From a virus, in the IMG/VR virus record IMGVR_UViG_2791355197_000001, positions 23,154-87,153 of that record: DNA of 64,000 nucleotides. One strand, given 5' to 3'. The position numbers were made by a program, and so were the translations under genes. Under the pieces are notes generated by a model. That model was not told the origin of the DNA, did no database searches, and saw nothing but the letters and a program-made list of their open reading frames with translations. Shown here piece by piece: positions 20,871-35,873 of the stretch (position 1 is its first letter; each line of letters opens with the position of its first letter).

Positions 20871-22553
20871 TCAAAGGACCGTGGCCCTCGGCTTTGCGCG
20901 GCCATGAGCCTTCGGGTTGGTCGCCATCAGATAGGCGGAGTTGAACATCGCGATCGCGGGATCGATCTTCGCGTCGCCAGCGGTTTGCTTCGTCGCGCGG
21001 ATCGCTGTTGCCGTCGGCTCGATCTTCAGGTTGCTGACGCACCAATCCATCATCGAGCTCGGTGCGTGCCGAAGCTTTCCCGAGACCAGCATGCGTTCGC
21101 AGGTCTTGATGCTGTTCATCATGCCGAACCCCTGCGGGGCGCCGATGAGCAGCTTGTTGTCGACGGTGATGTCGACTTCCTTGTCTGCCAATGCGTCGAC
21201 GAACTCGCCGAGACCGGCCGGGTCGACTGCGACACCACCGAGGAGCCGCCGGTCCTTCACCAGCTTGATGATGCGGACGATCTTCGAGATGTCCTGCAGC
21301 GAGTCGTCGACGATGGTGAGATCGCCCTCCTTCTCGAATTGAAGCAGGCGCGGCGCGATCGACTGCCTGAGCTCGAGCACGCCGCGGTGGCACCAGGCGT
21401 GGACCCAAAGGAGCCAGTCGCGCGTTTCGCGGTGCCGGCCCATCAGGCTGAGACCGAACAAGTCGTCGAGGCCGCCGCCGTCAATGCCGGGGACGATGAC
21501 GTCGCAAACCTTGAAGAGATGCCGAAGCGTGATCCTGTCGTCGTCTCGCTTCTGCCAATGCGCGGCACCAGCCCAGCGGTTGGCCCGCAGGTTCATGCCG
21601 ATCTCGACGTTGAGATGCTTGGCTAGGAAGGTGTTGAGCGCGAGATCGCTGCCGCGCTGGGCCTTGATCAATTCGCCCAGCAACCACTCGGTGCTGACGG
21701 ACTTGTCGAGGTTTGGGTTCGTGATCCGCCAGTTCGACGGATCGAGATAAGCCTTCTTGGCCAGCAGCGCGGCCGGGAATTCGTAGAGCACGCCAAGGCT
21801 GGTCGGATCCACGATCTTTCCGTCTCGGACGTCGCGGAAGTAGTCCAGCTTCTCCTTGAACACGCCGGTCGGTGGAGCGTCCGACTGGGTCGTGAGGAAG
21901 ATGACAAAACCTTCCGGCCTCGATACCAGGCCGCCGAGCGCCTCCTGGAACATCGCAGAGGCATTGGCGCGCTTGCCGAAGATCCAGAGCTCGTCGATCA
22001 GGACGAAGGCAGCCTTCTTGCCGCCGACGACATCGGTATCGGCGGCGACCACCTTGAGGACAGCGTCGGTGGTCAGATGCGTGATCTGCCGGTAGTTGTC
22101 CTGGACGTGCAGCAGATCCTTCAGCTTGGGGTGCAGCCGGACCATGGCTGCCGCCGGCACGAACGAGTTGTTGGCGATCTCGATCGTCGGCGCCAGGATC
22201 AGCAGTTCGGCGCCGTGCCGCCAGTTCCGCACCAGCGCGGTGACCATGATGCCGGCAGCGATCGTCGACTTGGTGTTCTTCTTGCTGATCAGCAGCAAGA
22301 ATTCGCGGATCAGCCGCTTCGCCTGCCCGTGGTCATAGGCGCCGAAGATCGCCCGAACGAATTCGAATACCCAAGGCTCGCAGACCTCGCCGAAGGTCGG
22401 TTGTCGCGGCAGATCGTAGATCCGGAGCGACTTAAACACCTCGAGGGCGGCGTCGGCCTCGCTCGGGAACAGCGGCTCGAACGGGATCAGGCTCTGGCCC
22501 GCAATGATCCTCCGTTCCCAGTCCGGGCAAGCCGTAGACCAAGCCAGGGTCAT
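20871..22553 (-). CDS. terL: Terminase large subunit
   Basis: ISKKNTKST Walker A, LIDELW Walker B, GIDGGGLDDL nuclease motif, KIDPAIA. Confidence 0.95.
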   Translation of the reverse strand: MTLAWSTACPDWERRIIAGQSLIPFEPLFPSEADAALEVFKSLRIYDLPRQPTFGEVCEPWVFEFVRAIFGAYDHGQAKRLIREFLLLISKKNTKSTIAAGIMVTALVRNWRHGAELLILAPTIEIANNSFVPAAAMVRLHPKLKDLLHVQDNYRQITHLTTDAVLKVVAADTDVVGGKKAAFVLIDELWIFGKRANASAMFQEALGGLVSRPEGFVIFLTTQSDAPPTGVFKEKLDYFRDVRDGKIVDPTSLGVLYEFPAALLAKKAYLDPSNWRITNPNLDKSVSTEWLLGELIKAQRGSDLALNTFLAKHLNVEIGMNLRANRWAGAAHWQKRDDDRITLRHLFKVCDVIVPGIDGGGLDDLFGLSLMGRHRETRDWLLWVHAWCHRGVLELRQSIAPRLLQFEKEGDLTIVDDSLQDISKIVRIIKLVKDRRLLGGVAVDPAGLGEFVDALADKEVDITVDNKLLIGAPQGFGMMNSIKTCERMLVSGKLRHAPSSMMDWCVSNLKIEPTATAIRATKQTAGDAKIDPAIAMFNSAYLMATNPKAHGRAKPRATVL

Positions 22554-22752: not shown

Positions 22753-23208
22753 CTACTCGTTGACCGCGGTATTGTCGATCACCAGGCCAATCTTCGGTGG
22801 CTCAGGCGGCTGAAATGCCCCCGATGAAGCCACTCGCTCCGCCGCGGCCTTGCGCTCCGCCTTCTTCCCGACCTTCTCCGGCGCCGGCGGTGCAGCCGGT
22901 ACCTCGACGCCGGCGTTTCCGAGATCGGCGATCGCCTGAGCAGCGGCCGACACCCGGGTCATCTCCTCGAGCTTCTTGATGCAGGTGGCGTTGCCCTTCT
23001 TCGCCTGCTTGAAGAGCATCCCGACCACTTCGGCCCGCTTCTTGGCCACACCGGTCGCAATCTCTTCGGGGAAGGACTTCACCAGCGTCGGCGTCGAGAT
23101 CCCGAGCACTCGAGCGCATTCATCCTGGGACATTCCGCACGAGATCCACTCCTCGACCTTCGTGCGCTGCGCTTTCGTCGGTTTGAACGCCGGCCGACCT
23201 CGGGCCAT
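22753..23208 (-). CDS. terS: Terminase small subunit
   Basis: MARGRPAFKPT...GMSQDECARVLGISTPTLVKSF (HTH), GKKAER C-terminus; upstream of terL. Confidence 0.8.
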   Translation of the reverse strand: MARGRPAFKPTKAQRTKVEEWISCGMSQDECARVLGISTPTLVKSFPEEIATGVAKKRAEVVGMLFKQAKKGNATCIKKLEEMTRVSAAAQAIADLGNAGVEVPAAPPAPEKVGKKAERKAAAERVASSGAFQPPEPPKIGLVIDNTAVNE

Positions 23209-23264
23209 GCCGAAACTCCAATTTCTTTGCCGTTTTGGGTGAACTGGACGAAATTTCCGGTCGG

Positions 23265-23350
23265 CCCAAAAAAAATTGTGCGAATGAGCCCCCGTGCGGT
23301 AGGGGGTCCCGCCGGTTCCTAGACTTTTCGACCCCATACCCCTTGGCCTC
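23265..23350 (-). other. Putative cos / packaging-initiation region
   Basis: Minus-strand GGGGTATGGGGTCGAAAAGTCTAGGAACCGGCG...GCACAATTTTTTTT just upstream of terS; resembles the G-run/A-T-run layout I recall upstream of terS in HK97-like phages (pattern recall, not verified). Confidence 0.4.
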
Positions 23351-23558
23351 GAGCGGCTGGCCGGCATGGCGCGCGCTGGCGTGTCGTCGGCGCTGGCGCT
23401 GGATTGGTCGGGGCGTTCGGCCTGGCTGATCAGTGTCAGCCGATATGCTGGCGCCCGTGGCGCCGCGCCGCGCGCGGCAACCGTCCGCGCTCTCTCTCGC
23501 CTGTCTGTCTAGGTGGTGACGTTCTGTTGACGTGGCAGGCGCGCGCCGATCCGCCGAG

Positions 23559-23732
23559 CTAGGCCGCACCATGCGGCGCGCTATCGCTGGGCATTGCGTC
23601 CCATGCGTCGGCGCTGGTGATGGTGCTGCGCTCAACCCGGATGACTGGCAGCACAATGACGGTTGCAGGCTGGCGCCGTTGTCGGCGGGCTCCGCGTGGC
23701 GCGCTGGGCGGTAGCTCGACTACCTCGCCCAT
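23559..23732 (-). CDS. Small hypothetical protein
   Basis: MGEVVELPPS...PATVIVLPVIRVER, 57 aa. Confidence 0.4.
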   Translation of the reverse strand: MGEVVELPPSAPRGARRQRRQPATVIVLPVIRVERSTITSADAWDAMPSDSAPHGAA

Positions 23733-23751
23733 GCCGTGCCCCTGACATGCG

Positions 23752-23785
23752 AAACCCGCCAAGGCGGTGCGACCTGGCGGGCTTT
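23752..23785. terminator. Hairpin, possible terminator
   Basis: AAACCCGCCA/TGGCGGGCTTT imperfect inverted repeat. Confidence 0.4.
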
Positions 23786-23960
23786 GGTTTGCAGCGACAA
23801 TGCGCCGAATGCCTGTTCTGAATCGCAAATTGAGTCGGCTGTCAAACCGCTGTCGCACGGGTTGGCAGTGGATGACGGCGCCGACGGCGCTTGATGCATC
23901 TCAATTCCGTGATAGTTGCGGACTGGATGACTGCGGCATAACTCAATCTTGAGGCGTCCA

Positions 23961-24272
23961 ATGACCGATACAAAGGCGAGCAAGGGCACGGCCAAACGCA
24001 AGCCAGCAAGCCGGGCCTTCTCTTCCGCTGATGCTTCACTGAGAATCAGCGCGGCTGAATTCCGGGCCTGGCAGGAAGGCGCCAGCCTCTCGAATGCCGC
24101 AGCTGCGCGCCTGCTCTACGTGTCTGAAAATACCTTGGCGCAGTACCGGGCCAATGGTGCGGGGCCGGATATCGCGCGCCAGATTTGGGCGATCATTGCC
24201 GGGATAAGGCCGGATACTGGACGGCAGCGCGCCGAATTGCTGGGCCGGATCAATGCCGCGCTAGGCGCCTAA
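23961..24272 (+). CDS. Cro/XRE-like HTH protein, first gene of the plus-strand array
   Basis: GAGG RBS before ATG 23961; ISAAEFRAWQEGASLSNAAAARLLYVSENTLAQY HTH pattern. Confidence 0.7.
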   Translation: MTDTKASKGTAKRKPASRAFSSADASLRISAAEFRAWQEGASLSNAAAARLLYVSENTLAQYRANGAGPDIARQIWAIIAGIRPDTGRQRAELLGRINAALGA

Positions 24273-24414
24273 TGCCTCAATATTGCGATACCAAGCCGGG
24301 CCATTCTAACTTTTTTTCGCAATTTTGCGTTTTGCCAGTTGACGGCCGCGCCGATATCTGCGCATGTACGCATCACCACGGCGCGATTGTGCGCAACTTC
24401 AAAGGCCCGGCGAA

Positions 24415-24588
24415 ATGATCCCCTTCATTTCCTTTTGTATCGCTAACCCGGCTTTCACTCTGGCCATGCTCGCAGCGATCTATACCGCTTGCTGGGCCGC
24501 CCTCGTCCCCTTCCTTTACGCGCCCGCCAAGTCTCGGCGCCTTTCGATCCGGCGCCGCGCGCGCCGCTCCAGCTTGTCGCGCCGCTGA
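24415..24588 (+). CDS. Small membrane protein (57 aa)
   Basis: Follows motif A copy 1; hydrophobic N-terminal half and Arg-rich tail. Confidence 0.55.
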   Translation: MIPFISFCIANPAFTLAMLAAIYTACWAALVPFLYAPAKSRRLSIRRRARRSSLSRR

Positions 24589-24639
24589 GGCGGTGCGGCT
24601 CAACCCGCGCAATCGTGCGCAACTGAAAAGGCAAACTCG

Positions 24640-24711
24640 ATGAAAGACTTTCTTCTCTTCCTCGCCGTGGCGTTCGTTGGAACGCTTGTAATCGTCGCCT
24701 GCTGTATCTGA
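24640..24711 (+). CDS. 23 aa hydrophobic peptide MKDFLLFLAVAFVGTLVIVACCI
   Basis: Follows motif A copy 2 and AAAAGG; single-TM composition; below the ORF-track cutoff. Confidence 0.55.
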   Translation: MKDFLLFLAVAFVGTLVIVACCI

Positions 24712-24803
24712 CGATTTGCAGCCTATGCCGTGCACGTCGCGGCATAAACGGCAAATCGCCGAACCCCGCGCAATTGTGCGCAACTCCAAAGGAAGTAACT
24801 GCA

Positions 24804-25682
24804 ATGACTGTCTACACCTCAACCGCCCGTTTCGATGGTACCGCCCGCGCTCTCACCGAGAACGAATTGCGCAAGCTGGCGCCGTCGGTTTTCGCGGTCG
24901 ACGCTCACCATTCACGTTCCGAACGCTTCCAGCCTATCCCGACGTTTGACGTGCTGCGCGCGCTGATGGCGGAAGGCTTCCAGCCCGTCGGCGCGAAACA
25001 GAGCGTTGCCCGGCTCGATGATCGCCGCGACTTCACCAAGCATCTGATCCGCCTGCGCCGTCTCGACAACGCCGCAACCTACACCGTCGGTGACACCGTC
25101 TGCGAAATTCTCCTCAAGAATGCCAATGACGGGACATCGGCCTATGACTTGATCGCCGGGCTTTTCCGTGTCCGTTGCCTCAACAGCCTTGTGGCGCAGG
25201 TCGGCACCGTCGAATCCGTCAAGGTCCGCCACACCGGCACCGCGCAGGATGTTTCGCACAAGGTGATTGAGGGCACCTATCGCGTGCTGGGCGAGGCCCA
25301 GAAGGCTCTATCGGCGCCGCAGGACTGGGCGCGCCTGGCACTCGACCGCGACGAAAAGCAGGTGCTGGCAGAAGCCGCGCACGTTCTGCGGTTCGGTGAT
25401 GCGGAAGGCGAAACGAATACGCCGATTCAGCCCGCGCAGTTGCTGCAGCCGCGTCGCCGCGACGACGTCGCCGCCGATCTCTGGACTACGTTCAATGTGG
25501 TTCAGGAAAACGTCATCCGTGGCGGGCTGTCAGCTCGCGGGCTCGATGCCAACGGCCGCCGCCGTCGCGTCACGACTCGCGCCGTTAACGGGATTGATCA
25601 AGACGTGAAACTGAACCGCGCCCTTTTCACGCTCGCGGCCAAAATGGCGGAGCTCAAAGGCGCGGCTCGCATCGCGGCCTAA
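24804..25682 (+). CDS. DUF932 family protein
   Basis: LAPSVFAVDAHHSRSERFQPIPT, FTKHLIRLR, LKNANDGTSAY, GLFRVRCLNSLV, DLWTTFNVVQENVIRGG. Confidence 0.9.
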   Translation: MTVYTSTARFDGTARALTENELRKLAPSVFAVDAHHSRSERFQPIPTFDVLRALMAEGFQPVGAKQSVARLDDRRDFTKHLIRLRRLDNAATYTVGDTVCEILLKNANDGTSAYDLIAGLFRVRCLNSLVAQVGTVESVKVRHTGTAQDVSHKVIEGTYRVLGEAQKALSAPQDWARLALDRDEKQVLAEAAHVLRFGDAEGETNTPIQPAQLLQPRRRDDVAADLWTTFNVVQENVIRGGLSARGLDANGRRRRVTTRAVNGIDQDVKLNRALFTLAAKMAELKGAARIAA

Positions 25683-25694
25683 GCGATTGCAGCC

Positions 25695-25719
25695 CATGCC
25701 CGGGCTTGTCCCGGGCATG
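25695..25719. repeat. Rhizobial REP-like palindrome CATGCCCGGG-CTTGT-CCCGGGCATG
   Basis: Perfect 10 bp stem; resembles the extragenic palindromes I recall from Bradyrhizobium-group genomes. Confidence 0.6.
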
Positions 25720-25776
25720 ATCGGCAACCGCCGGAAACCGCGCAATTGTGCGCAACTCGAAAAAGGGAAAATTGCC

Positions 25777-25881
25777 ATGAAGTATCGCCGCCACGATTCC
25801 GACCGCAAGCCAACCGACAAGCGGACTCGCCGCGCCGTGCTGAGCCAAGGCAAGCGCGCCTTTCTGAATTCCTGCCTCTGA
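25777..25881 (+). CDS. 34 aa basic peptide
   Basis: MKYRRHDSDRKPTDKRTRRAVLSQGKRAFLNSCL after motif A copy 4. Confidence 0.55.
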   Translation: MKYRRHDSDRKPTDKRTRRAVLSQGKRAFLNSCL

Positions 25882-25893
25882 GGAGCTAGGCCT

Positions 25894-26190
25894 ATGCCTG
25901 TTATCGAACTGGACGGCGCAGTCTATTTCAATTGCTGTACCGGCACCGCTGCGCCGGATTGGTCTCAATTCGTCGCGCTCGAAACCGGCGGCTGCACTAC
26001 GGAAACAGACGCGCGAACGGGCCAAGAATGGACCAACGGCGGAGAGCCGGACGACGTTGCCGAATTCTGGACTGTTTACGGCCGCCTGAAGGAAGGCGGT
26101 TGCGAGGCCATTACGGATTGCAAGACGCGGGCTGAGGTTGACGCGGTCGCGCTCCGCCTCTCCGAGCTATCCGGGCTTCCCGTTCATTGA
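25894..26190 (+). CDS. Acidic hypothetical protein (98 aa)
   Basis: GAGG RBS; EFWTVYGRLKEGGCEAITDC. Confidence 0.7.
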   Translation: MPVIELDGAVYFNCCTGTAAPDWSQFVALETGGCTTETDARTGQEWTNGGEPDDVAEFWTVYGRLKEGGCEAITDCKTRAEVDAVALRLSELSGLPVH

Positions 26191-26282
26191 CGTTGCGACA
26201 CTGCGCAGGCCTGGCCCTGCGCAGCACGGAACGCCAAAGCGGACTAACGCGCGATTGTGCGCAACTCAAAAGGACTCTGGAT

Positions 26283-26486
26283 ATGCGAGGGATTTGGACT
26301 CTCTACGTCGACCAATACGGCAACCGCTGGGGCGCCAGCACGGTTGCGGAGCTGCGCGGCAAGATCGGCGGCGGGCGCATCGCCAAGATGTATCGCGACA
26401 AGGCGAACGGCCGCGCCGTCCACTGCGGCTACATCATCGGTTCGCATTGGTGCACCGCTTATAGGCCTGTCGAGGTGCCCGCATGA
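26283..26486 (+). CDS. Hypothetical protein (67 aa)
   Basis: After motif A copy 5; MRGIWTLYVDQYGN...KMYRDK...HCGYIIG. Confidence 0.7.
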   Translation: MRGIWTLYVDQYGNRWGASTVAELRGKIGGGRIAKMYRDKANGRAVHCGYIIGSHWCTAYRPVEVPA

Positions 26487-26623
26487 TGGCGGAGACATTC
26501 ATTCCCGACAACATCCACGGGATTCCCGTTGGCTTCTACACGGACCGCGGAATCGCCGCGCTGCTGCGCAGTTTCTGCCGTTATCCCGCCGCGGTGCGGT
26601 TCATTGCGGACATGCTGGAATAG
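26483..26623 (+). CDS. Hypothetical protein (46 aa)
   Basis: ATGA-coupled; MMAETFIPDNIHGIPVGFY...FIADMLE. Confidence 0.55.
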   Translation: MMAETFIPDNIHGIPVGFYTDRGIAALLRSFCRYPAAVRFIADMLE

Positions 26624-26691
26624 CGCGGGCCTGGCCCGCCGACGTTTCGAACCCGCGCGATTGTGCGCAACTGAAAGAGGAGCAATTCAAC

Positions 26692-27255
26692 ATGGCTTGG
26701 CAGTTCTATGACTTTTTCGTCCATCCGACTATCCACGGGCCGATGCCGGAAAAGCGCTGGATTCCGGCCGCAAACGACAAGCCGCACAAGGTGCGGCGTA
26801 GCTCGAAAGTCACCCGCACCGCTGGCGGCGTGTCCGCTGACGATTTGAACGAACGCCACGCAATCGAGTACGCGCGTTGGCTGGCGCGGCGAGACAACGC
26901 CGATATCCCGTCCGGTACCTCGCCGCTAATCATCTGGGACGGCGTGACAGACGCCGCCGGAAAATGGCGCAAGCGCGCCCGTGCAGTCGAGTTTGGCACG
27001 CGGCGGACAACTCACACCGGCTACGGCCGAAACGCCTGCACAACGCACCACTGGGACGTCGCCGCCCGGATCGAAATTCCGCATTGGGATTGGCAGCCCG
27101 CCGAACCGGTTGAGGAGATCACTCCGGAAGCGGTACCGGTCCCGGTTGCGCCTTCCTTCAAGATCCCGGGCAGGATCCTGCGGACATCATGCCTTGTGCC
27201 AGTTTTGGCGCGTGTCCCGGTTGCGCCTTCCTGCGCAATTCGGCTTGCGGCTTGA
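26692..27255 (+). CDS. Hypothetical protein (187 aa)
   Basis: After motif A copy 6 and GAGGAG; MAWQFYDFF...SCAIRLAA. Confidence 0.7.
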   Translation: MAWQFYDFFVHPTIHGPMPEKRWIPAANDKPHKVRRSSKVTRTAGGVSADDLNERHAIEYARWLARRDNADIPSGTSPLIIWDGVTDAAGKWRKRARAVEFGTRRTTHTGYGRNACTTHHWDVAARIEIPHWDWQPAEPVEEITPEAVPVPVAPSFKIPGRILRTSCLVPVLARVPVAPSCAIRLAA

Positions 27256-27265
27256 GACGGCGCCG

Positions 27266-27625
27266 ATGAAACGCCAGCAAGCTCCGACGTTCAATCAACT
27301 TTGCGATGCATTGCAGTCGCGTCCTTCGCCGCGCTCGCAAGCCGAATGGCGCGAGGCCTCAACAGCCATGCGCCTGGCCCGGCGCCATCCCGGCCGCGTC
27401 GGCCGAACGATCTATATCGAATGCGGGACATTTGCGCGCCGCATTTACCTTGAGGCCACTTGGGGCGGGGTGAATTGCTACAACGGCCCGCACCCATTCG
27501 GCTACGTCAACATGATCGCTCACCACCGGTTCGTGCTCCGGCAGGGACTGCGGGAAGGCCGCGTTGCGGAAGCCCGACACTTTGCTGAGGCCTCGCGCCT
27601 CCGCGGGCCGGTGCCGCTGCCATGA
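27266..27625 (+). CDS. Hypothetical protein (119 aa)
   Basis: MKRQQAPTFNQL...; co-oriented and tightly packed. Confidence 0.55.
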   Translation: MKRQQAPTFNQLCDALQSRPSPRSQAEWREASTAMRLARRHPGRVGRTIYIECGTFARRIYLEATWGGVNCYNGPHPFGYVNMIAHHRFVLRQGLREGRVAEARHFAEASRLRGPVPLP

Positions 27626-27729
27626 CGCGAAAGCCTCAACCCCGCAAACAGCGCTGCCCCTACTGCAGGCAGTTGCGGCCGTTCTACATGATCGCCGCAC
27701 ACATCACCCAATGCGAGGCGCTTAGGTAG
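27622..27729 (+). CDS. 35 aa C2HC zinc-finger-like peptide
   Basis: MTRKPQPRKQRCPYCRQLRPFYMIAAHITQCEALR, ATGA-coupled. Confidence 0.5.
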   Translation: MTRKPQPRKQRCPYCRQLRPFYMIAAHITQCEALR

Positions 27730-27832
27730 CGTCCCGGCTACGACCGATTTCCACGGTGGATGACGTTCCCCCCCGGCGTCGGCCGATTCCAAATCCGCGC
27801 AATAGTGCGCAACTGAATAGGAGGTTTCCGAG

Positions 27833-29251
27833 ATGACTGACAGCAACACCAAGCGCGCATTTTCGCCTACCGGTAGCGAAATCGTCGCCACCGCCGACAT
27901 GATCCCCGGCAACGCGATGTGCTTTTTCTATGGCCGCAACGCCGATGGCACGCTCGAAATGGACCATTCGAGCGAGGGCACTCGCATGTGCTGGGATGGC
28001 GCCATCACCAAGACCGACGAGCGCGGCCAAACCCTATTCATCGCCCAGGACGGCACCGAGTGGCCCGAAGATTCGATCCACCTGGAAGGCGAGGAGCCGC
28101 GCCAGATGCCGGCCGCGCCGGATTCCCCGGTTGCGCCTCTTCTCTCCGCTCGCGAGCATGCAACCGTTTTGGCCGCTCTACGCCACTGGCAGCGCCATCA
28201 AGCTGATAGCGTCGGCGTGAGCCGCAACGTGATCCCGGAGGACGATATCGCCACTATCGGCGGCACCGTGGCGCCTATGCGCGCCGCTGAGGTCGATGCC
28301 CTTTGCATGCGGCTCAACTCCCCGGTTGCGCCTTCGCCCGATTGGCGCGAGATCGCGCGCGACCTGGCTGGCGCGCTCGACGCCTGCAGCCATCAGATTG
28401 GCCAGATGTCCGGCATGTTCGATGACGAGGACGGAACGATCGCGGCCGCCGTCTCGGACGCTGATGACGCGACGGAGTCCTATCGCAAGGCCATCGCTGG
28501 CGCACGGCCTTCGCGCTCGCCTGCGCTCGGAACGGTTTGGACCTGCACCACCGACGGCGACGAGTGCGCGCTCACCACAACCATTCACGCCACGGAAGCG
28601 GAGGCGCTGGAGCGTGTTCGCGACGACTTGCGGATGGATTGCAAGCCAAACCAATTGAAGCACCTTGGGGCGCTGCCCGCGGTTGATTTGCCGGAAGCGT
28701 GGACCGAAGCCAACGACGGCGCGTGCATCATCGAAAGCCACAAATTGCCGTGCCTCCCCGCTGCGCCCTCGCCCCTTGCCGTCGTGGTTGAACAGGGCCT
28801 TGTCGCGCGCGTCATGTCCGACAATCCCGAGCTGATCGGTGCGCCGGTGCTGCTGATCGATCATGACACCGAAGGCGCCGACGCCGACGATGTTTTCCAG
28901 ATCGCCGCGAATGACGGCAGGGCCGTGTCAATCGTCGGCCACATCTTCAACGTCGAGGCATCGGACGTGCACTTGCCAGCTGTCATGGCAACCATGCTGG
29001 AGCGCGGCCGCGACTTGCGGCAGCCACCTGGCGGATTTCCGGGTCAGGATGATCGGGCGCGCGCCGAAGGCTGGTGTCTGATTGAGGACGCTGGCGGGCT
29101 GCTGCGCATCGAGGCTGACAGCGACTCCGACATTTTCAGCCCGGGCGGCGTCAGCCACGACGACGAGGCCGAGGCCTTCGTCAAGGCGAAAGCGGCCGAA
29201 GGCAGCGAGTATCACATCGCGGCGCTTGCCCGGGTCGGCACCGCGCAATAG
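27833..29251 (+). CDS. Mosaic multi-domain hypothetical protein (472 aa)
   Basis: After motif A copy 7 and GGAGG; several short acidic modules separated by SPVAP/PAAPSP linkers. Confidence 0.75.
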   Translation: MTDSNTKRAFSPTGSEIVATADMIPGNAMCFFYGRNADGTLEMDHSSEGTRMCWDGAITKTDERGQTLFIAQDGTEWPEDSIHLEGEEPRQMPAAPDSPVAPLLSAREHATVLAALRHWQRHQADSVGVSRNVIPEDDIATIGGTVAPMRAAEVDALCMRLNSPVAPSPDWREIARDLAGALDACSHQIGQMSGMFDDEDGTIAAAVSDADDATESYRKAIAGARPSRSPALGTVWTCTTDGDECALTTTIHATEAEALERVRDDLRMDCKPNQLKHLGALPAVDLPEAWTEANDGACIIESHKLPCLPAAPSPLAVVVEQGLVARVMSDNPELIGAPVLLIDHDTEGADADDVFQIAANDGRAVSIVGHIFNVEASDVHLPAVMATMLERGRDLRQPPGGFPGQDDRARAEGWCLIEDAGGLLRIEADSDSDIFSPGGVSHDDEAEAFVKAKAAEGSEYHIAALARVGTAQ

Positions 29252-29339
29252 CCCCGGCTACGATCGATTTCCCTCACCCCCGAGCTACGACCGATTTCGC
29301 AAGGCGCAATCGTGCGCAACTGAAAAGGAGCAAGATCAC

Positions 29340-31496
29340 ATGAACCATACCGCCACCTATTCGCCCGATGACAACAAATTGCGCCTCTATCCCGCGCACC
29401 GCCTCGACGCCGAGGAGTACGCGCGCGTAAAGGCCGCCGGCTTCAAGTGGGCGCCGCGTCAAGAACTGTTCGTCAAGCCGACCTGGTCGCCGGAAGCCGA
29501 GGACCTGCTGATTGATCTCGCTGGCGAGATCGGCGACGAGGATACGAGCCTGGTGGATCGCGCCGAGCAGCGCGCCGACCGTTTCGAGGACTACAGCGAC
29601 AAGCGCCTCGCCGACGCCGAGCGCGCGCGGAAGACGGTCGATGAGATCGCAGAGCGCTTCTACATGGGTCAGCCGATCCTTGTGGGCCACCATTCGGAGA
29701 GGAGCGCGCGCAAAGACAAAGAGCGCATGGACAACGGCATGCGCAAAGCTCTCAAGCTCTGGGATACCTCGAACTATTGGACCGCGCGCGCGGCCGGCGC
29801 GATCGCTCACGCGAAATACAAAGAACTGCCGGCCGTCCGGCATCGCCGCATCAAGACCATCGAATCCGACAAGCGAAAGCTGGAAAAGTCGACGGCCGAG
29901 AATGAGCGTCAGCTCAAAGCTTGGCGGATTGTCGCCAGCATCACCGACGCCGAGAAGCAGCGCTCAACCGGTCTCACCGTGGCGAACGTCGGCGGCTATT
30001 GGTCAATGTCTTTCCCCCTGGCCGACTATCCGCGCGATCCGCCGGCCTCGCAGTACGAGGGCCCCATGGGCCTTTGGTCGGCTATCGATGGGAACGTCAT
30101 CACGGCCGCCACGGCAGCCGAGCTTGCGATTGCTGGCCTGGAACGCTCAGCCCCGCGCAAAGCCCGCTGGATTGCTCATTACGACAACCGCCTGGCCTAT
30201 GAACGCGCGATGCTGGCCGAGCAGATCGGAACGGAGGCGAGCGCCAACCCGCTGGCCGACCGCTTCGCTTTCGCTGTCGGCGGCCAAGTGCATGCTGGCC
30301 GATACGACGAATGGCTGACCGTGACGAAGGTCAACCGCGGCGCCAACGGTTCGGTTTCAAGCATCACCACCACCACGCCGGCCGGCTCGCGCAACAAGCT
30401 GGCGCGTTGGCGAGTCGAGAGCGTCCGCGACTATCAGGCGCCGAGCGAGGAGACCGTCGCCGCGGCGAAGGCGGCAAGCAAGCTCCCGCCGCTCTGCAAC
30501 TATCCCGGCGATGACTTCGCCCGCCTGACTCAGGATGAATACGACAAGGTTCCGAAGGACTATCGAGGTTATCGACCGCGTGCCGCTACCGAGACGGTCG
30601 GCGCGCACCGTACCCGCGTAGCCATCGGGGCCTATGCGTTCCGCGGCACCTGCGACCCCAACAAGCGACATTCCTACGCCGGGGTTTTCATCACGGATGC
30701 AAAGCGCGTCGACCCGCCCAAGGTCGTGCCAGCCCCCGAGCCGCAGGAGCCGGCCGAATTCGTCGCCGAGTATGTCGCGCCACCCGCTGTTGACCTTGAC
30801 GCGACGCTGGGAACAATCGCCGAGATCATGGCGGAGCCGTCGCCGGTTGAGTCCGTGCCGGAAGTCGTCCCGGTTGCGCCCGCGGAATCGCTGCGCCATC
30901 TCCCGGATACGGCCGATTTGCCGGCGCCGACAGCCGCGGACACGTTCGAGGCAATGCGGGCGATGCTCAGGGGTGGCGGCGTGCAGGTCGTCGTAGCCCC
31001 GCAACTCTTCGCGACCCCGCCCACCTTGGCGACCGATGTGATCGAGGCGGCAGACATTCAGCCCGGCCACCTGGTGCTGGAGCCGAACGCCGGCACGGGG
31101 GCCCTCGTCTATCCTGCACTGGAGCGCGGCGCGAGCGTTACCGCTGTTGAGATAAACGACGTCCTGGCGCGGACGCTCGGGCTCGATCGTCGGATATACC
31201 TGACGGTGCGACTCGATTTCCTCACTCTCGAACCGTCCGACGAGTGGATGTTTGACCGCGTCGTGATGAATCCCCCGTTCGAGCGCGGAGCAGACATCAA
31301 GCATATCGAGCACGCGCGGCGGTTTCTGAGACCTGGCGGCCGGCTGGTCGCGATCTGCGCCGACGGCCCGCGCCAACGGGCGAAGCTCGAACCGATCGCA
31401 GCGGAGTACCGCGCCTTGCCCGCCGGGTCCTTCAAGGCCGCCGGCACGATGGTCAACACGGCGTTGGTCGTCATCGACGGGCCGCCGCCTGGATAG
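29340..31496 (+). CDS. DUF3560-domain protein fused to an N6-adenine-type SAM methyltransferase
   Basis: N-terminal TATYSPDDNKLRLY, GQPILVGHHSER; C-terminal VLEPNAGTGAL (motif I) and VVMNPPF (motif IV). Confidence 0.88.
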   Translation: MNHTATYSPDDNKLRLYPAHRLDAEEYARVKAAGFKWAPRQELFVKPTWSPEAEDLLIDLAGEIGDEDTSLVDRAEQRADRFEDYSDKRLADAERARKTVDEIAERFYMGQPILVGHHSERSARKDKERMDNGMRKALKLWDTSNYWTARAAGAIAHAKYKELPAVRHRRIKTIESDKRKLEKSTAENERQLKAWRIVASITDAEKQRSTGLTVANVGGYWSMSFPLADYPRDPPASQYEGPMGLWSAIDGNVITAATAAELAIAGLERSAPRKARWIAHYDNRLAYERAMLAEQIGTEASANPLADRFAFAVGGQVHAGRYDEWLTVTKVNRGANGSVSSITTTTPAGSRNKLARWRVESVRDYQAPSEETVAAAKAASKLPPLCNYPGDDFARLTQDEYDKVPKDYRGYRPRAATETVGAHRTRVAIGAYAFRGTCDPNKRHSYAGVFITDAKRVDPPKVVPAPEPQEPAEFVAEYVAPPAVDLDATLGTIAEIMAEPSPVESVPEVVPVAPAESLRHLPDTADLPAPTAADTFEAMRAMLRGGGVQVVVAPQLFATPPTLATDVIEAADIQPGHLVLEPNAGTGALVYPALERGASVTAVEINDVLARTLGLDRRIYLTVRLDFLTLEPSDEWMFDRVVMNPPFERGADIKHIEHARRFLRPGGRLVAICADGPRQRAKLEPIAAEYRALPAGSFKAAGTMVNTALVVIDGPPPG

Positions 31497-31570
31497 CCCC
31501 CCGGCTGCGCCCTCTCGCTTACGACCGATTTCCCACCCCCCGGCTGCGACCGATTTGAGAGGAGACCCCC

Positions 31571-31810
31571 ATGACCGACTTCATCATCTGCAGAAACTGC
31601 GGCACCGAGGAGCACGCGCACCTGATCGACGCTAAGCCGGAGATCGGCGCCGATGAAAACAGCGACTTCACCCGCATGGAATGCATTGCCTGTTATGGGC
31701 CCGGCTGGCGACCGGCTGCATCAACGTCCGATTTCAAACTCTCGGTGGCGCCGCACTTAGCGCCGTACTACGCGGCCTATGCTGGGCGGATGGGCTGGAC
31801 ACCGCAGTAG
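31571..31810 (+). CDS. Small Cys-containing (zinc-ribbon-like) protein
   Basis: CRNC...CIAC; GAGAGGAG RBS after motif B. Confidence 0.65.
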   Translation: MTDFIICRNCGTEEHAHLIDAKPEIGADENSDFTRMECIACYGPGWRPAASTSDFKLSVAPHLAPYYAAYAGRMGWTPQ

Positions 31811-31885
31811 CCCGGCTGCGCCCCTGCGTACGACCGTTTTCCCGTCATCCCCTCGGCTACGGCCGATTCTGAAAGGAGAATTACC

Positions 31886-32257
31886 ATGCTCATCACCGTC
31901 AAGGCCGGCGCAAAAGTCGATGGTCACACGTTCAGCAAGGACTCGAACCAAAACTTCGGGCGAGAGAAAGCCGAAGGGCTTATCAAAGATGGCCGCGCGC
32001 AGCCCGTGGCGTTCGATGCTGAGGGTAACTGCCGGATCAATACCAGGTTTGATGCTTGGCTCAACGAGCACGGCGCCCTGGCTATCGGTTCCGGTGGCGA
32101 CGCCTTTCTGCATCTCTCATCAGAATTCCCGCTCGCGTACTTGCCCGAGGCCTTGCAAGCCTATCAAGCGGGGCATCACCACGGCATGGGTGACGGCCGC
32201 ATCAAGCTGCAGTCAGAGATGCGGGACCTGCTCTGCGTGGAGCCCGCTCGCACATGA
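31886..32257 (+). CDS. Hypothetical protein (123 aa)
   Basis: AAAGGAGA RBS after motif B. Confidence 0.7.
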   Translation: MLITVKAGAKVDGHTFSKDSNQNFGREKAEGLIKDGRAQPVAFDAEGNCRINTRFDAWLNEHGALAIGSGGDAFLHLSSEFPLAYLPEALQAYQAGHHHGMGDGRIKLQSEMRDLLCVEPART

Positions 32258-32529
32258 ACGCCGAGCAGATCATAGCTGCTGCCGGCCTCAAGATCGCGAC
32301 ACGCGCCGAGTTCGACGCCGAGTCCGACGTCCCCGCCGGGGTTCGCCTGTTGGCCGCGCGCATCTTCAAGCGTTGGGGCGGCGACTTCGTGGTGTACGAC
32401 CCGGCCGGCGGCGATGACGGCTGGCTGCTGATCGATGATGATCGCGACCAGATCATAGGCGAGACGGTCGAGCACCTCGGACGGCTCGAGCCTGAGCCGC
32501 CGGCGCCAGCGCAAGGCTCACTGTTCTGA
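32254..32529 (+). CDS. Acidic hypothetical protein (91 aa)
   Basis: ATGA-coupled; ends QGSLF. Confidence 0.65.
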   Translation: MNAEQIIAAAGLKIATRAEFDAESDVPAGVRLLAARIFKRWGGDFVVYDPAGGDDGWLLIDDDRDQIIGETVEHLGRLEPEPPAPAQGSLF

Positions 32530-32569
32530 TCCCCCGGATACGATCGATTTTGAACAATAGGAGAACGAT

Positions 32570-33136
32570 ATGACGCAATCCGACTACAAGCACGGCACCT
32601 GCGCATGGTGTGGCAACCAAGAAGAGGTTTTCCGCGACAACATGCTGTGCGACACCTGCGACAGCGATACGGTCTATTGCACTGTCTGCCGATCGCGCCA
32701 GCACCATGAATCGAAATGCCGCCACGTTTTCCAAAGCCACGGATGCGGCGAATGGCGCGGCGCCGGCTTCGATCCAATCGACAACGAGATGAAGGCACCT
32801 TTCCACCGCCTGTTGTCGGCCATGGGCGAAGACTTCGCGGTCGATCTGAAAACTGCGATCCGGTCAGGACGGTTCTTCACCTGGACAATAGCGCCGATGA
32901 TCGGCGGTGGCGGAATGCTGGAGCTCAACGGCATGCCGCAGCGCGACGGTCGTTCGATGCTATTCGAGTGGGGCGATGCCTTGATCAAGCTCGGCGAAGG
33001 ACGGCGCGCGGAGGAACTGCACGACGGCTATCGATGGATCGTGAGCCTATACAAGCGCAACACCACGAAGGCCAACCGGACCACCCTCGCCTGGATCGAT
33101 CAATGGTTGTGGCCTTTTGCCGGGGCCGCGTCATGA
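32570..33136 (+). CDS. Hypothetical protein with N-terminal Cys pairs
   Basis: CAWC, CDTC, CTVC, CRH; AGGAGA RBS after motif B. Confidence 0.7.
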   Translation: MTQSDYKHGTCAWCGNQEEVFRDNMLCDTCDSDTVYCTVCRSRQHHESKCRHVFQSHGCGEWRGAGFDPIDNEMKAPFHRLLSAMGEDFAVDLKTAIRSGRFFTWTIAPMIGGGGMLELNGMPQRDGRSMLFEWGDALIKLGEGRRAEELHDGYRWIVSLYKRNTTKANRTTLAWIDQWLWPFAGAAS

Positions 33137-33507
33137 GCCGAAGAGTCCGACGCGTTCCCGCAGACTGGCAGCACCCCCGCAACTCCGGCGGCCGCTATGT
33201 GCCGCTGGCTGAAGCCATTCCGGATGCGCCTGCGCCATACCCTGCGGCCAGCTATATGCCGGCTTGGCCAGCAGCGGAACGGACGCACTGGCAGTTGTAC
33301 GAGACCACCAGCGCCGGGACGCCGCTATCACCGCCCTGCCCGTCGCCCGAGGCCTTGGCCAAATGGCTGGCCGGCCACCATGTGGAGGCCGCACCGGGCT
33401 TCACGGGAACGGAGGCGCAATGGCTGGCCGCGATCAAGCGCGGCGGCGTCATCCCGCCGGTGATGACCGTCGGCAAGCGCCAGGTCAATCCGCTCGACTA
33501 CACCTGA
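33133..33507 (+). CDS. Conserved phage hypothetical protein
   Basis: RRVRRVPADWQHP...WQLYETTSAGTPLSP...PEALAKWL, a pattern I recognise from phage early proteins. Confidence 0.65.
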   Translation: MSRRVRRVPADWQHPRNSGGRYVPLAEAIPDAPAPYPAASYMPAWPAAERTHWQLYETTSAGTPLSPPCPSPEALAKWLAGHHVEAAPGFTGTEAQWLAAIKRGGVIPPVMTVGKRQVNPLDYT

Positions 33508-33601
33508 TCGGCCGGGACTCCCGGCTACGATCGATTTTGTGCTACCCCCTCGGCTACGGCCGATTCCGGGCGATTGTGCCCAACCGGAAAGGAACTCTCA
33601 G

Positions 33602-33925
33602 ATGTCCCCACCCCGATTTGTTCACCGCAAGATCTCGGCCGAGGACTTCAAGTCCGAACTGGCCAAACAAGGCATGTCAGTGCCGGCGTTCGCAAGGGTC
33701 TGGTGCCAGAACCTGTCGACGGTCACGAAATGGGCGAATGGCGGGAATGACATTCCGACCTGGGTGCCGATCGCGCTGACCATGATGACGCTACCGAACG
33801 CCCACGGGACCGCGCGCATGGCGGCCGCAGCGATGATCCAGCAGGACCGGCTGCATCCCGAACTCGGTGAATTCCCCTACCAGAAGCTGCGGCAGATGCC
33901 TGCGGACGACGAGATCGAGGAATAG
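33602..33925 (+). CDS. Cro/XRE-like HTH protein, last gene of the array
   Basis: ISAEDFKSELAKQGMSVPAFARVWCQNLSTVTKWANG; after motif A copy 9. Confidence 0.75.
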   Translation: MSPPRFVHRKISAEDFKSELAKQGMSVPAFARVWCQNLSTVTKWANGGNDIPTWVPIALTMMTLPNAHGTARMAAAAMIQQDRLHPELGEFPYQKLRQMPADDEIEE

Positions 33926-33932
33926 CCCCCGG

Positions 33933-34139
33933 CTACGATCGATTTTGCGGACCCCGCTTGCGCCTTGCTGCCTTGGCTGTCCGCTTTTTTGCCGGCGATC
34001 GCTTCACCGCTGGAGCCGCTGCCGGGGTCTTCGCTGCGTCCTCGGCATCGAGCTTGCGTTTCAGCGCTTGCATCTCCTCGTACCGGGCTTCCCGCTGCTG
34101 ACGCAGCCGGTCGGCGCGCGGTGATTGTTCGCGCCCCAT
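33933..34139 (-). CDS. Basic hypothetical protein (68 aa)
   Basis: Coupled to the 34139-34414 gene; Lys/Arg/Ala-rich. Confidence 0.5.
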   Translation of the reverse strand: MGREQSPRADRLRQQREARYEEMQALKRKLDAEDAAKTPAAAPAVKRSPAKKRTAKAARRKRGPQNRS

Positions 34140-34414
34140 TAGCCGGCCTCCGCCTCATCAACCGGCACCTCGCCGACCTCGAGCATGACCGGCGGATGGG
34201 TCCGCGAGATGACCCTAAGATGCACAGGGGCGCCGGCGTTCAGCCGAGCCAACTCCTCTGCCGTCGGCTTCCATGCTGACGTTAGGGACGGCATAGAATT
34301 GTTGATGACCTCGGCGCGGATCGGCAGCGCAAAGCACGTCCCGTCTCGCTCCTCGTCCCAATTCGGCGGGGCGCCCAATGTCATGTTGGCGCCGTCGATC
34401 TTCGCAATGTCCAT
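34139..34414 (-). CDS. Conserved phage hypothetical protein
   Basis: LGAPPNWDEERDGTCFALPIR...WKPTAEELARLNAG. Confidence 0.7.
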   Translation of the reverse strand: MDIAKIDGANMTLGAPPNWDEERDGTCFALPIRAEVINNSMPSLTSAWKPTAEELARLNAGAPVHLRVISRTHPPVMLEVGEVPVDEAEAG

Positions 34415-34423
34415 TGTACCCTC

Positions 34424-34768
34424 CTACGATCTCATGCGGTTTGCTCGAGCCTGGATGCCGGCCCGGGTGTTGTGCGAGTTGCAGGCGCAGCGGCCATTAC
34501 TGAGATCCAGCGCCAATTCTGGCCGATCGCGCACATCCTGAATGTGATCGGCGTACATCTGGTCTCCCTTCTCACGGCTGCGCTCGCAACGGTGGCCGTT
34601 CTCGACGTATTCGCAGCGCCAACCTGCTCGCTTCTTGACCTGCAACGCCCACTGCTGATGCTCAGCAGTCTGATAGTGAGGATCCGCGCGCTTCGGCGGA
34701 GGCTTGACCTTCCTGGTGTCCAACGTCGGGACGCGTGGGCTGAGAGATGGGATGCGCGACCGCCTCAT
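34424..34768 (-). CDS. HNH endonuclease (HK97 gp74-like packaging cofactor)
   Basis: WRCE...C...ADHIQD...NGRCACNSHN. Confidence 0.85.
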   Translation of the reverse strand: MRRSRIPSLSPRVPTLDTRKVKPPPKRADPHYQTAEHQQWALQVKKRAGWRCEYVENGHRCERSREKGDQMYADHIQDVRDRPELALDLSNGRCACNSHNTRAGIQARANRMRS

Positions 34769-34950
34769 TTTTTATCTCCTCGTCGCGGACCGAACATTTT
34801 CCGGCCCATCGCACGCACCATCTCCCGCTGGTCCCAGGTCATGGTGTCGTTGTCGACGTCGAGCAGCAGGAGACCGTATTCCCGCCAAACCCGCTGCTTG
34901 GTCTCCAGCGGTGTTTCCCGCGTGTTGGGAGCGAACCGTCCGAGCGACAT
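34765..34950 (-). CDS. Small hypothetical protein
   Basis: 61 aa coupled to the HNH gene. Confidence 0.55.
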   Translation of the reverse strand: MSLGRFAPNTRETPLETKQRVWREYGLLLLDVDNDTMTWDQREMVRAMGRKMFGPRRGDKK

Positions 34951-34961
34951 CGATCAGCCCC

Positions 34962-35873
34962 TTACTTTCGCAAGCCCATGCCGGCAGCGGTCCTGAGCCG
35001 CCGCACGGCGTCCCATGTCCGGTCGATGATCTCGACGCCCTCGTAATGCTTCACGAGCGCGTTCAGCGCGATCCGGAAGTCGGAATTGTTGGTGCGGTGC
35101 TCCTCGCCGCCATGCAGCCGGACGTCCTCGCTGCTGCACTCGAGTCCAATCCTGACGAGCAGGATATCGAACTGCCGCCCGCCGAGACGACGCTCGACCT
35201 CCCTGAGACGCCCGCTGGCCTCGAGTGCGATGGTGTGCGAGGGCGACCCGCCGCCTCCGCCGTCGACCTTGTCTTGCAGCGCGAAACCGCGCGCTCCGTG
35301 GAATGTCGCGAGATCGAAGTCGCGCCGGAACCGATCCGCGGCGCTCTGGCGCAGCTTGTCCTCTGGATCCGCGGCGCCCCGCTTCTTCGACTCGGTCAGA
35401 TTGAGATGCGAGGCGCGAACGGTGTCGACCATCACGTTGAGCCGCGGGTTTTCCGGGTCCGGAATGATGTGCTTGCGCCGGCCGCTAGCGAGCCGCTCGG
35501 CCTCTGCGGCCGCCTTCTGCTCCTTCTTCGTCAGCGGCTTGCCGAGAATGTTCAATAGATCGGCGGCCCGCGCGGCCGCATGCTGATACCCCTGCTGGAA
35601 CAGCTTGTTTGTCCGGAGATACTCCGTCACCAGGCGGGTTGTCGGCGTATCGTAGCCCATGGCCCACTCGATACCCGCTTCGCCAATACGACGGGCGCTT
35701 GCGCGCTCTTCCTCAAGCATGACCTGGGCTTCATACGAGAGACCGGCGTAGGAGCGCATCGGCTTGGCCCGCCGGATATCACGCTGGAATGCACGGGCGC
35801 GACGATCGCGCTCCTTGTCGACGTGTACCGCCGCGACATCCGTGATCTGTGCTTGAGACATTCCATCCTCCAC
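34962..35873 (-). CDS. Probable late-gene transcription regulator (Q-position; DUF6456-like C-terminus)
   Basis: AADRFRRDF...VDGGG...LREVERRLG pattern; position at the end of the replication operon. Confidence 0.55.
   Translation of the reverse strand: MEDGMSQAQITDVAAVHVDKERDRRARAFQRDIRRAKPMRSYAGLSYEAQVMLEEERASARRIGEAGIEWAMGYDTPTTRLVTEYLRTNKLFQQGYQHAAARAADLLNILGKPLTKKEQKAAAEAERLASGRRKHIIPDPENPRLNVMVDTVRASHLNLTESKKRGAADPEDKLRQSAADRFRRDFDLATFHGARGFALQDKVDGGGGGSPSHTIALEASGRLREVERRLGGRQFDILLVRIGLECSSEDVRLHGGEEHRTNNSDFRIALNALVKHYEGVEIIDRTWDAVRRLRTAAGMGLRK

Follow-up and report, generated by a model that had tools for sequence, protein, structure and literature searches.

A covarying hairpin with a conserved loop before the ribosome-binding sites of an accessory gene array in a Bradyrhizobium-type prophage

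Why does one short inverted repeat recur nine times within a single block of phage genes, each time just before a ribosome-binding site? The question is raised by a 64,000-nucleotide stretch of the IMG/VR virus record IMGVR_UViG_2791355197_000001 (positions 23,154 to 87,153; hereafter the window), which sits within an 8.4-Mb genome in a region that is a Bradyrhizobium-type prophage. The repeat, here called motif A, occurs in an array of plus-strand accessory genes, and a first-pass annotation of the window preferred to read it as a structure of single-stranded RNA or DNA over a plain operator in double-stranded DNA. The comparison of motif A with its counterparts in related phages shows, as far as sequence evidence reaches, that the hairpin is selected as a structure and its loop as a sequence, and that orientation and spacing of the motif are tied to start codons. 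On these grounds, motif A is interpreted here, with qualified preference, as an element of the mRNA, and the competing explanations are weighed where the evidence touches them.

The nine copies of motif A

Motif A is 14 nt long, and its nine copies are all intergenic and on the plus strand (Table 1). Specifically, eight of them fit the pattern GCGCRATNGTGCGC, which matches the window eight times between 24381 and 29304, on the plus strand only, against a mean of 0.04 matches in shuffled sequences, none of 100 shuffles reaching eight. The ninth copy, GGGCGATTGTGCCC at 33568, reads GGGCG-ATTG-TGCCC and carries a double compensatory change in the stem. All these positions agree with the first-pass annotation, as does the variation among the copies: position 5 of the stem is A in five of the nine and G in four, and one loop position, the third base, is T, C or A. 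Directly after each copy comes the trinucleotide AAC, extended to AACT in eight and to AACC in the ninth, and downstream of each one, again as first described, an A-rich Shine-Dalgarno (SD) sequence of the AGG/GGA type precedes an ATG that lies 19-23 nt past the hairpin.

A covariance model (R1) built from 36 diverse copies of the motif (alignment A1) gives the nine copies 27-37 bits, whereas no other match exceeds 16 bits in the window or 22 bits in the genome, and the exact pattern has no further occurrence in the 8.4 Mb. At the orthologous copy in L038, L039, L040 and L050, four related loci, the GGGC/GCCC stem of copy 9 is retained. The search of Rfam with positions 23000-35000 gave no relevant match at E values up to 5, megablast against phage records found nothing, and the sequence of motif A was not found in the literature searched. 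The exact 17-mer, searched in 400 genomes of the family, returned single matches only, mostly one recurring variant, that are probably chance or coding sequence. Lastly, a weak model match (20.4 bits) lies in the same genome at C45:288156-288189 on the minus strand, about 700 nt past the right end of the window; with a CGCCC/GGGCG stem, a GATAGT loop and no SD context, it is probably due to chance.

Covariation, strand and spacing in related loci

The first-pass annotation made its reading depend on covariation in a larger alignment, and such covariation is found, both in the 36 copies of alignment A1 and in 78 distinct matches of the model. The relatives are loci that encode homologues of the DUF932 and methyltransferase proteins of the window. 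Close relatives carry 3-11 copies of motif A per locus; in more distant ones, a hairpin occupies the equivalent place with other stems, and the stems differ from copy to copy within one phage, being TGGC/GCCA, GCC/GGC and TCTC/GAGA in L056, GGCTC/GAGCC, GCCC/GGGC and GCGC/GCGC in L065, and TCGCC, GGTGA and ATCCC in L087, while half-sites also vary within L052. Despite these differences, the loop centre R-A-Y-N-G-U is constant across these relatives. In alignment A1, 96.7% of the cells pair against 68.6% in shuffles, percentages that are inflated because seeds and model matches were picked partly by structure, and 37 cells hold double changes against 11 in shuffles. The 78 distinct matches have the same pairing pattern, and sliding the partner by one column makes pairing in A1 fall to 17-18%. 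When sites are picked by loop, SD and ATG only, 74% of them have at least three contiguous flanking pairs, whereas the figure for this hexamer is 6-7% at other places and 10% on the opposite strand. By thermodynamic folding, the hairpin is predicted at P 0.5-0.9 in seven of the nine window copies; the overall folding of 50-nt regions at the copies is no stronger than that of shuffles.

Positions 5 and 10 of the 14-mer are A..U in 37 true sites and G..U in 30, never G-C, C-G or U-A, and therefore act, judging from these counts, as conserved loop bases rather than as a freely evolving pair. The alternation of A and G opposite T had been offered at first as wobble and, as such, as evidence for a single strand; this argument fails, since the two positions are fixed as purine and U. 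Wobble was also rejected as a test of the strand, because G.U or A.C events are too scarce in the outer stem and the inner position is under sequence constraint.

The arrangement of the copies is as regular as their loops. In the related loci, 93 of 98 model matches are on the gene strand. Among the distinct gene-strand copies, counting those of the relatives together with the nine of the window, 81 of 82 precede a start codon (ATG in 77 cases) at 12-24 nt, and the spacing from hairpin to start codon is 17-24 nt in 76 distinct copies, with a median of 20. The hairpin itself is located 5-9 nt 5' of the A-rich SD, at the 5' edge of the ribosome-binding region. Strand bias and fixed start-codon spacing argue for a hairpin in the mRNA, and it is from this strict tie to translation starts that we infer RNA rather than single-stranded DNA. 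The preference for a single-stranded structure over a plain operator is thus upheld by outer-stem covariation, strand bias and start-codon spacing in the relatives.

The same data bear on the explanation that the 14-mers are stoperator-like operators in double-stranded DNA, at which a dimeric helix-turn-helix (HTH) repressor would silence the array in the lysogen. XRE dimers typically have the half-site spacing seen in the 14-bp near-palindrome of the window genome, the array is bracketed by two HTH genes, and the stoperators of Cluster A mycobacteriophages set a precedent for many oriented sites. Stoperators, however, have a constant recognition sequence per genome, whereas half-sites differ within L052, L056, L065 and L087 and only the non-palindromic centre stays constant; variation of half-sites inside a single genome can be explained by a hairpin on one strand and not by a dimeric DNA-binding protein. 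Moreover, an operator needs neither the strict strand bias nor the spacing to the ATG, and single copies of the motif occur where no such HTH protein is found (see below). Such operators are hence considered highly improbable.

Other DUF932-linked arrays have the same architecture with different loops. In L059, an IMG/VR contig (7500-11640), eight pre-SD hairpins share the loop AUGGC on unrelated stems of 5-9 bp, and each is followed by GAAAGGGA and an ATG, the first one lying directly after a TTGACG promoter; the same locus has a TetR-family gene at 12278-12880. Four copies of CGGCG-AUCA-UGCCG are present in L119, AAUCAC loops with covarying stems in L076, L080, L099 and L122, and hairpin-U5-GGAG units in L097.

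Table 1. Copies of motif A in the window, with the promoter-like site, neighbouring genes and chromosomal mazE-doc loci. Positions are those of the window unless a locus is named.
Feature	Position	Strand	Remarks
Motif A copy 1 (GCGCG-ATTG-TGCGC)	24381-24394	+	ATG 24415; 57-aa membrane peptide with Arg-rich tail; 27.1 bits
Motif A copy 2	24607-24620	+	ATG 24640; 23-aa hydrophobic micro-ORF, kept in L040, L110 and L050; 33.0 bits
Motif A copy 3	24768-24781	+	ATG 24804; DUF932 protein (292 aa, 24804-25682); 36.2 bits
Motif A copy 4	25740-25753	+	ATG 25777; 34-aa Arg/Lys-rich peptide (25777-25881); 37.1 bits
Motif A copy 5	26249-26262	+	ATG 26283; 67-aa protein; 32.1 bits
Motif A copy 6	26655-26668	+	ATG 26692; 187-aa protein; 34.9 bits
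Motif A copy 7	27797-27810	+	ATG 27833; 472-aa protein; 30.0 bits
Motif A copy 8	29304-29317	+	ATG 29340; DUF3560 + methyltransferase protein (718 aa, 29340-31496); 34.4 bits
Motif A copy 9 (GGGCG-ATTG-TGCCC)	33568-33581	+	ATG 33602; 107-aa XRE-type HTH protein (33602-33925); 32.4 bits
Sigma-70-type promoter-like site	24339-24367	+	-35 TTGACG 24339-24344; 17-nt spacer; -10 GCATGT 24362-24367
103-aa gene, weak HTH_17 match	23961-24272	+	just 5' of array promoter; without a motif A of its own
Terminase large subunit	20871-22553	-	left of array
Portal	19563-20861	-	left of array
ClpP-type protease	18153-19547	-	left of array
mazE-doc locus with motif A in 5'UTR	L141:5870-6030		chromosomal
mazE-doc locus with motif A in 5'UTR	L146:5931-6095		chromosomal
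mazE-doc locus with motif A in 5'UTR	L142:2800-2960	-	chromosomal

Single copies, the array promoter and gene exchange

Motif A is not confined to arrays. Among 151 genomes of the genus, arrays are present in two only, the window genome (9 matches) and one other (6), and 14 genomes have one or two strong model matches; eleven single-copy sites from these genomes were examined, along with two weak matches of the window genome. In three Bradyrhizobium genomes, hairpin and SD stand before the antitoxin gene, MazE-like, of a mazE-doc pair whose toxin is Doc-like by inspection alone. The upstream regions of these pairs have diverged except for two islands, of which one is a TTGAAC-N17-TATACT promoter with an operator palindrome, GTTATAC-N4-GTATAAC, that overlaps the -10, and the other is the hairpin-SD module about 60 nt downstream. 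Two conserved islands amid diverged flanks place the mazE-doc hairpin, on sequence grounds, inside the 5' untranslated region (5'UTR) and under purifying selection. In another genome, a copy lies 32 nt past the stop codon of a 107-aa open reading frame (ORF), RelE/HigB-like by inspection alone, and 18 nt before the ATG of an XRE antitoxin gene. Further single copies stand in front of a phage capsid-family gene and of small orphans, and matches in other genera precede genes that resemble, by inspection only, a sliding clamp and a phage/plasmid gene. Within 6 kb of the single-copy sites, no homologue was found of any window ORF of at least 40 aa (16-42 kb). Since single copies occur in genomes where none of the three array proteins searched for was detected, the function of motif A is probably independent of an array-encoded regulator.

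The explanation that we favour, with a confidence a little above even, is that motif A is a cis-acting mRNA element in which hairpin, fixed loop and SD form a portable translation-initiation module whose loop is read by a partner present in any Bradyrhizobium cell. The conserved loop calls for a partner, and one that is general to the host is favoured because single copies occur in other genomes. Specifically, a 4-5-bp hairpin with the six-base loop R-A-Y-N-G-U would stand about 20 nt 5' of the start codon, the array would be transcribed from one sigma-70-type promoter directly before copy 1, and each cistron that follows an untranslated gap would start with its own copy. The partner reading the loop could be the platform of the ribosome (30S), an RNA-binding protein or a ribonuclease, and it would give each cistron an autonomous initiation signal and/or protection of the 5' end after intercistronic cleavage; in the ribonuclease variant, the hairpin would be left as a protective 5' end. 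Both RNase E and RNase J occur in Alphaproteobacteria. The repeated module of 25-30 nt would, as a by-product, offer a joint for the gain, loss and swap of gene units between related phages. Among the functions first proposed, a translational-control or RNA-binding site at the RNA level remains the best, while a single-stranded DNA promoter active during injection and a classical boxB element are unsupported.

Several points weigh against this interpretation, beside the inflated pairing percentages. The stem is nearly invariant (GCGC) in the Bradyrhizobium group and would also suit a 14-bp palindromic operator, and for copies 1 and 8 no hairpin is predicted in the long context used. A simple role as an insulator of the ribosome-binding site is not supported, because loss of the hairpin does not affect the predicted accessibility of the SD: when an arm is complemented or the hairpin is deleted in silico, SD-AUG accessibility is unchanged in eight of the nine copies. 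Lastly, five single-copy genomes have no match to either HTH protein of the array or to its basic peptide, and an empty search is weak evidence.

The array is probably one transcript from the promoter just 5' of copy 1 (Table 1). Transcription would start near 24374, about 6 nt before this copy, which is probably found at the very 5' end of a long transcript. The layout TTGAC(G/A)-N16-18-(GCATGT or TATGGT), 8-13 nt and first hairpin is kept in L050, L052, L039, L040 and L110, with TATGGT as the -10 in several of these five loci. A simple scan detected no consensus promoter or terminator at copies 2-9, being so crude that it also missed the array promoter owing to the weak -10, and no U-tract accompanies the motif A copies. 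A few nt 5' of the -35, at about 24322-24333, stands the inverted repeat CGCAA-TT-TTGCG, which is motif A-like and is absent or degraded in L039, L040 and L110; a conserved TTTTGCGTTTTGCC tract covers 24330-24338, just 5' of the array -35. Both may be an operator or UP element.

Each copy might instead be a promoter in its own right, either a hairpin promoter as in phage N4 or one whose loop displays the -10-like hexamer RATYGT, with transcripts starting from the AAC before the SD. The invariant A at position 2 and T at position 6 fall on two key -10 positions, AAC is conserved 5-7 nt downstream of the loop T, and a GC-rich hairpin before each gene unit could terminate the previous one. Against this, neither a -35 nor a TG extension is present, the ORFs of at least 150 aa listed for 14-64 kb showed no evident large phage RNA polymerase gene or giant ORF, and the related AUGGC and AAUCAC loops have no T at position 6. 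Copy 1 and the mazE copy already have good upstream promoters, and another copy is intercistronic. N4 hairpin promoters, moreover, are template-strand hairpins with a 3-nt loop that a giant virion RNA polymerase reads, whereas the loop of motif A has 4-6 nt and its wobble fits the sense strand, the closing G.U becoming C.A on the template strand. Promoter activity of the individual copies is accordingly held to be very improbable.

The array belongs to an accessory block of plus-strand genes at about 23.9-34 kb, between the minus-strand structural genes (Table 1) and the replication genes; to its right lie a DnaB helicase, a primase, several DNA methylases, a sliding clamp and an S24 repressor-like gene. 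The block encodes the DUF932 protein, the DUF3560-methyltransferase fusion, two small HTH-type proteins and many orphans, and PADLOC gave methyltransferase matches only. Array genes without motif A abut or overlap the preceding gene and may therefore be translationally coupled to it. The two tiny genes behind copies 1 and 2 (24415-24588 and 24640-24711) encode hydrophobic peptides that are both kept in relatives; the 57-aa one has an Arg-rich tail and the 23-aa one ends in CC(I/L). Two further repeats are present. Motif B, approximately CCCGGCTACGAYCGATTTCC, has 11 plus-strand copies between 27732 and 33947, which come just past stop codons of the array's second half, in some cases in tandem and immediately 5' of motif A. 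The third repeat, CCCGGTTGCGCC, occurs at 27139-27157, 27214-27232, 28124-28138, 28319-28337, 30867-30885 and 33951-33969, mostly within coding regions of array genes.

Comparison with the relatives shows that motif A copies lie at joints of gene exchange, as far as can be read from the alignments, the indels relative to L040 and L039 being bounded by them. The 472-aa gene unit (approximately 27824-29297), between copies 7 and 8, is absent from L040, which has a single motif copy there, and the DUF932 unit between copies 3 and 4 is absent from L039; these two copies have in common an extended upstream repeat, about 80 nt long and with a GC-rich hairpin in it (24712-24794 and 25679-25765). The exact bounding of both units by motif copies could be taken to mean that the repeats are recombination joints only, with no role in expression, a documented precedent being the promoter-early stem-loop (PeSL) cassettes that T4-type phages carry (PMC2839356). 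Nevertheless, the differing stems of L056, L065 and L087 leave too little shared sequence to recombine, while structure, loop and spacing are still kept; single copies are conserved against diverged flanks, and recombination has no need of a fixed distance to the ATG. A role in recombination alone is for these reasons judged quite unlikely.

Candidate readers, known systems and significance

The preferred mRNA element with a host-general partner has to be set against a regulator encoded by the array itself, for which three candidates are at hand: the XRE-type HTH protein behind copy 9, the 103-aa protein and the 34-aa Arg/Lys-rich peptide. For the XRE-type protein, an AF2 model (pLDDT 76) gives a generic match to XRE folds; kinship with the Aca proteins was not supported, HigA2, Aca1 and Aca2 being matched weakly (best E 0.12), and searches against Pfam, NCBIfam and PDB sequences were empty. 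Nor are the two HTH genes supported as paralogues at the level of sequence, since BLASTP gave no alignment. The 34-aa peptide, which matched no family, has the invariant residues R10, R16, R18, R19, K26, R27 and L30 and resembles arginine-rich RNA-binding peptides. DUF932 was discarded as a reader of the loop, because L039 has 11 copies and no DUF932 in its 18-kb locus.

With these candidates, the copies would be RNA operators, or dual DNA/RNA operators, through which the translation of all cistrons is shut off or tuned together, in the manner of Aca1/Aca2 or T4 RegA; with the peptide, an N/boxB-like antiterminator would be reloaded at each gene unit. The 5'UTR hairpins to which Aca HTH proteins bind are conserved and stop about 20 nt short of the start codon, and motifs of this kind are also present between the genes of anti-defence operons (PMC13551039). 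Of the related loci searched, only those with the motif gave homologues of the two HTH proteins; the peptide has homologues in 9 of the 12 motif-bearing loci and nowhere else among the fetched loci and, among the 151 genomes of the genus, in the two array-carrying ones only. Moreover, the stem variant of the copy before the HTH gene is retained from relative to relative, and the different loop of the eight AUGGC hairpins in L059 is what would be expected if the loop co-evolves with a phage factor. Conversely, these co-occurrences are confounded by common descent, the matches of the HTH model to known regulators are weak, and conserved single copies are present in genomes where none of the three proteins was found, which weakens the case for binding by the two HTH proteins. 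Recognition of a loop on free stems also differs from the helix reading proposed for Aca proteins, and the antitermination variant lacks a boxA-like element and would involve nine sites, far above the two known for nut. Operators for an array-encoded regulator are on balance thought unlikely, and an array-encoded factor may add a layer of control.

A related and rather doubtful idea is that motif A serves as a regulon-wide RNA address tag, to which a dedicated small factor binds at each tagged ribosome site or by which it reloads on the RNA polymerase at every gene unit; the 34-aa peptide would be the best candidate, acting like a miniature lambda N. Were this true, any gene inserted behind the tag would automatically come under the same control, amounting to a plug-in expression system for phage accessory genes.

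Among known systems, the RNA motifs associated with Aca2, Aca1, Aca10 and Aca12 are conserved hairpin structures within the 5'UTR of anti-CRISPR and anti-defence operons that are bound by HTH proteins (PMC13551039). Motif A resembles them as a small covarying 5'UTR hairpin that ends about 20 nt before the start codon, directly past the promoter as well as between genes of a phage accessory operon with a small HTH gene, and it lies, as they do, between transcription start and ribosome-binding site. In contrast, a motif A operon has nine to eleven copies, in which conservation falls on the loop while the stem can vary freely, opposite to an HTH protein reading a helix; copies are conserved in genomes where the array HTH proteins were not found, and the XRE-type HTH of the array has no significant match to the Aca families. 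Unlike the inverted-repeat DNA operator of the Aca type, which overlaps the promoter, no copy of motif A overlaps the -35 or -10.

The start-associated sequence (SAS) of Cluster K mycobacteriophages is a fixed 13-bp sequence that contains the SD and lies 3-7 bp from the start codon; its extended companion (ESAS) is a pair of 17-bp inverted repeats of conserved sequence, and a role of both in translation initiation has been proposed (PMC3203893). Motif A shares with SAS/ESAS the single orientation, the restriction to non-structural genes, the position a few nt from starts, the strong bias for ATG and the near-absence from the host genome. It differs from SAS, which is GGGATAGGAGCCC-like and includes the SD, in being a hairpin of variable stem that lies 5' of the SD, in another host phylum and without similarity of sequence. 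PeSL cassettes consist of a strong sigma-70 promoter and a terminator stem-loop within about 70 bp (PMC2839356, PMC4122927); like them, motif A is a short, repeated regulatory module at accessory-gene borders of a hyperplastic region, where the repeats delimit the gain and loss of genes, and unlike them it has neither promoter hexamers nor a U-tract and is coupled to an SD.

As a short hairpin with a sequence-specific loop beside a ribosome-binding site, motif A also recalls the sites of T4 gp43/RegA, of the MS2/PP7 coat proteins and of lambda N-boxB, and control of the RegA type likewise regulates many early genes together. The MS2-type hairpin contains the start codon, RegA sites are unstructured, and boxB occurs twice per genome, paired with boxA. 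Lambda nut, with a GNRA-like pentaloop on a 5-bp stem and boxA at one or two sites after early promoters, and with an N protein that has an Arg-rich motif, differs from the RAYNGU loop at nine start-fixed sites without a conserved boxA; the array does encode an Arg-rich peptide, of 34 aa. Solitary CRISPR repeats are 28-37 nt long with identical copies, whereas motif A conserves 14 nt plus the SD context and its stems vary within phages; no CRISPR array with the motif A hairpin is present in the window genome. By-eye comparison also found a poor fit to a CRISPR solitary repeat, a ROSE thermometer, an integron attC site, EcfG and sigma-54 promoters and the RegR box. Motif A thus shares features with Aca motifs, SAS/ESAS and PeSLs and has the defining features of none.

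If the preferred reading is right, motif A would represent an undescribed RNA motif family, absent from Rfam, and a standard, transferable start-of-gene module in mobile elements of the Rhizobiales. It would explain how a single promoter can drive unrelated accessory genes, including micro-genes of 23 and 34 codons that annotation would miss, and how these genes are exchanged as units. A practical use of the covariance model is that it points out the true start codons of such arrays. Moreover, a hairpin of 14 nt with many natural variants of stem and loop in sister phages is a tractable system, which could address the question, raised by the mycobacteriophage SAS and by the Aca motifs, of what reads conserved elements before phage ribosome-binding sites.

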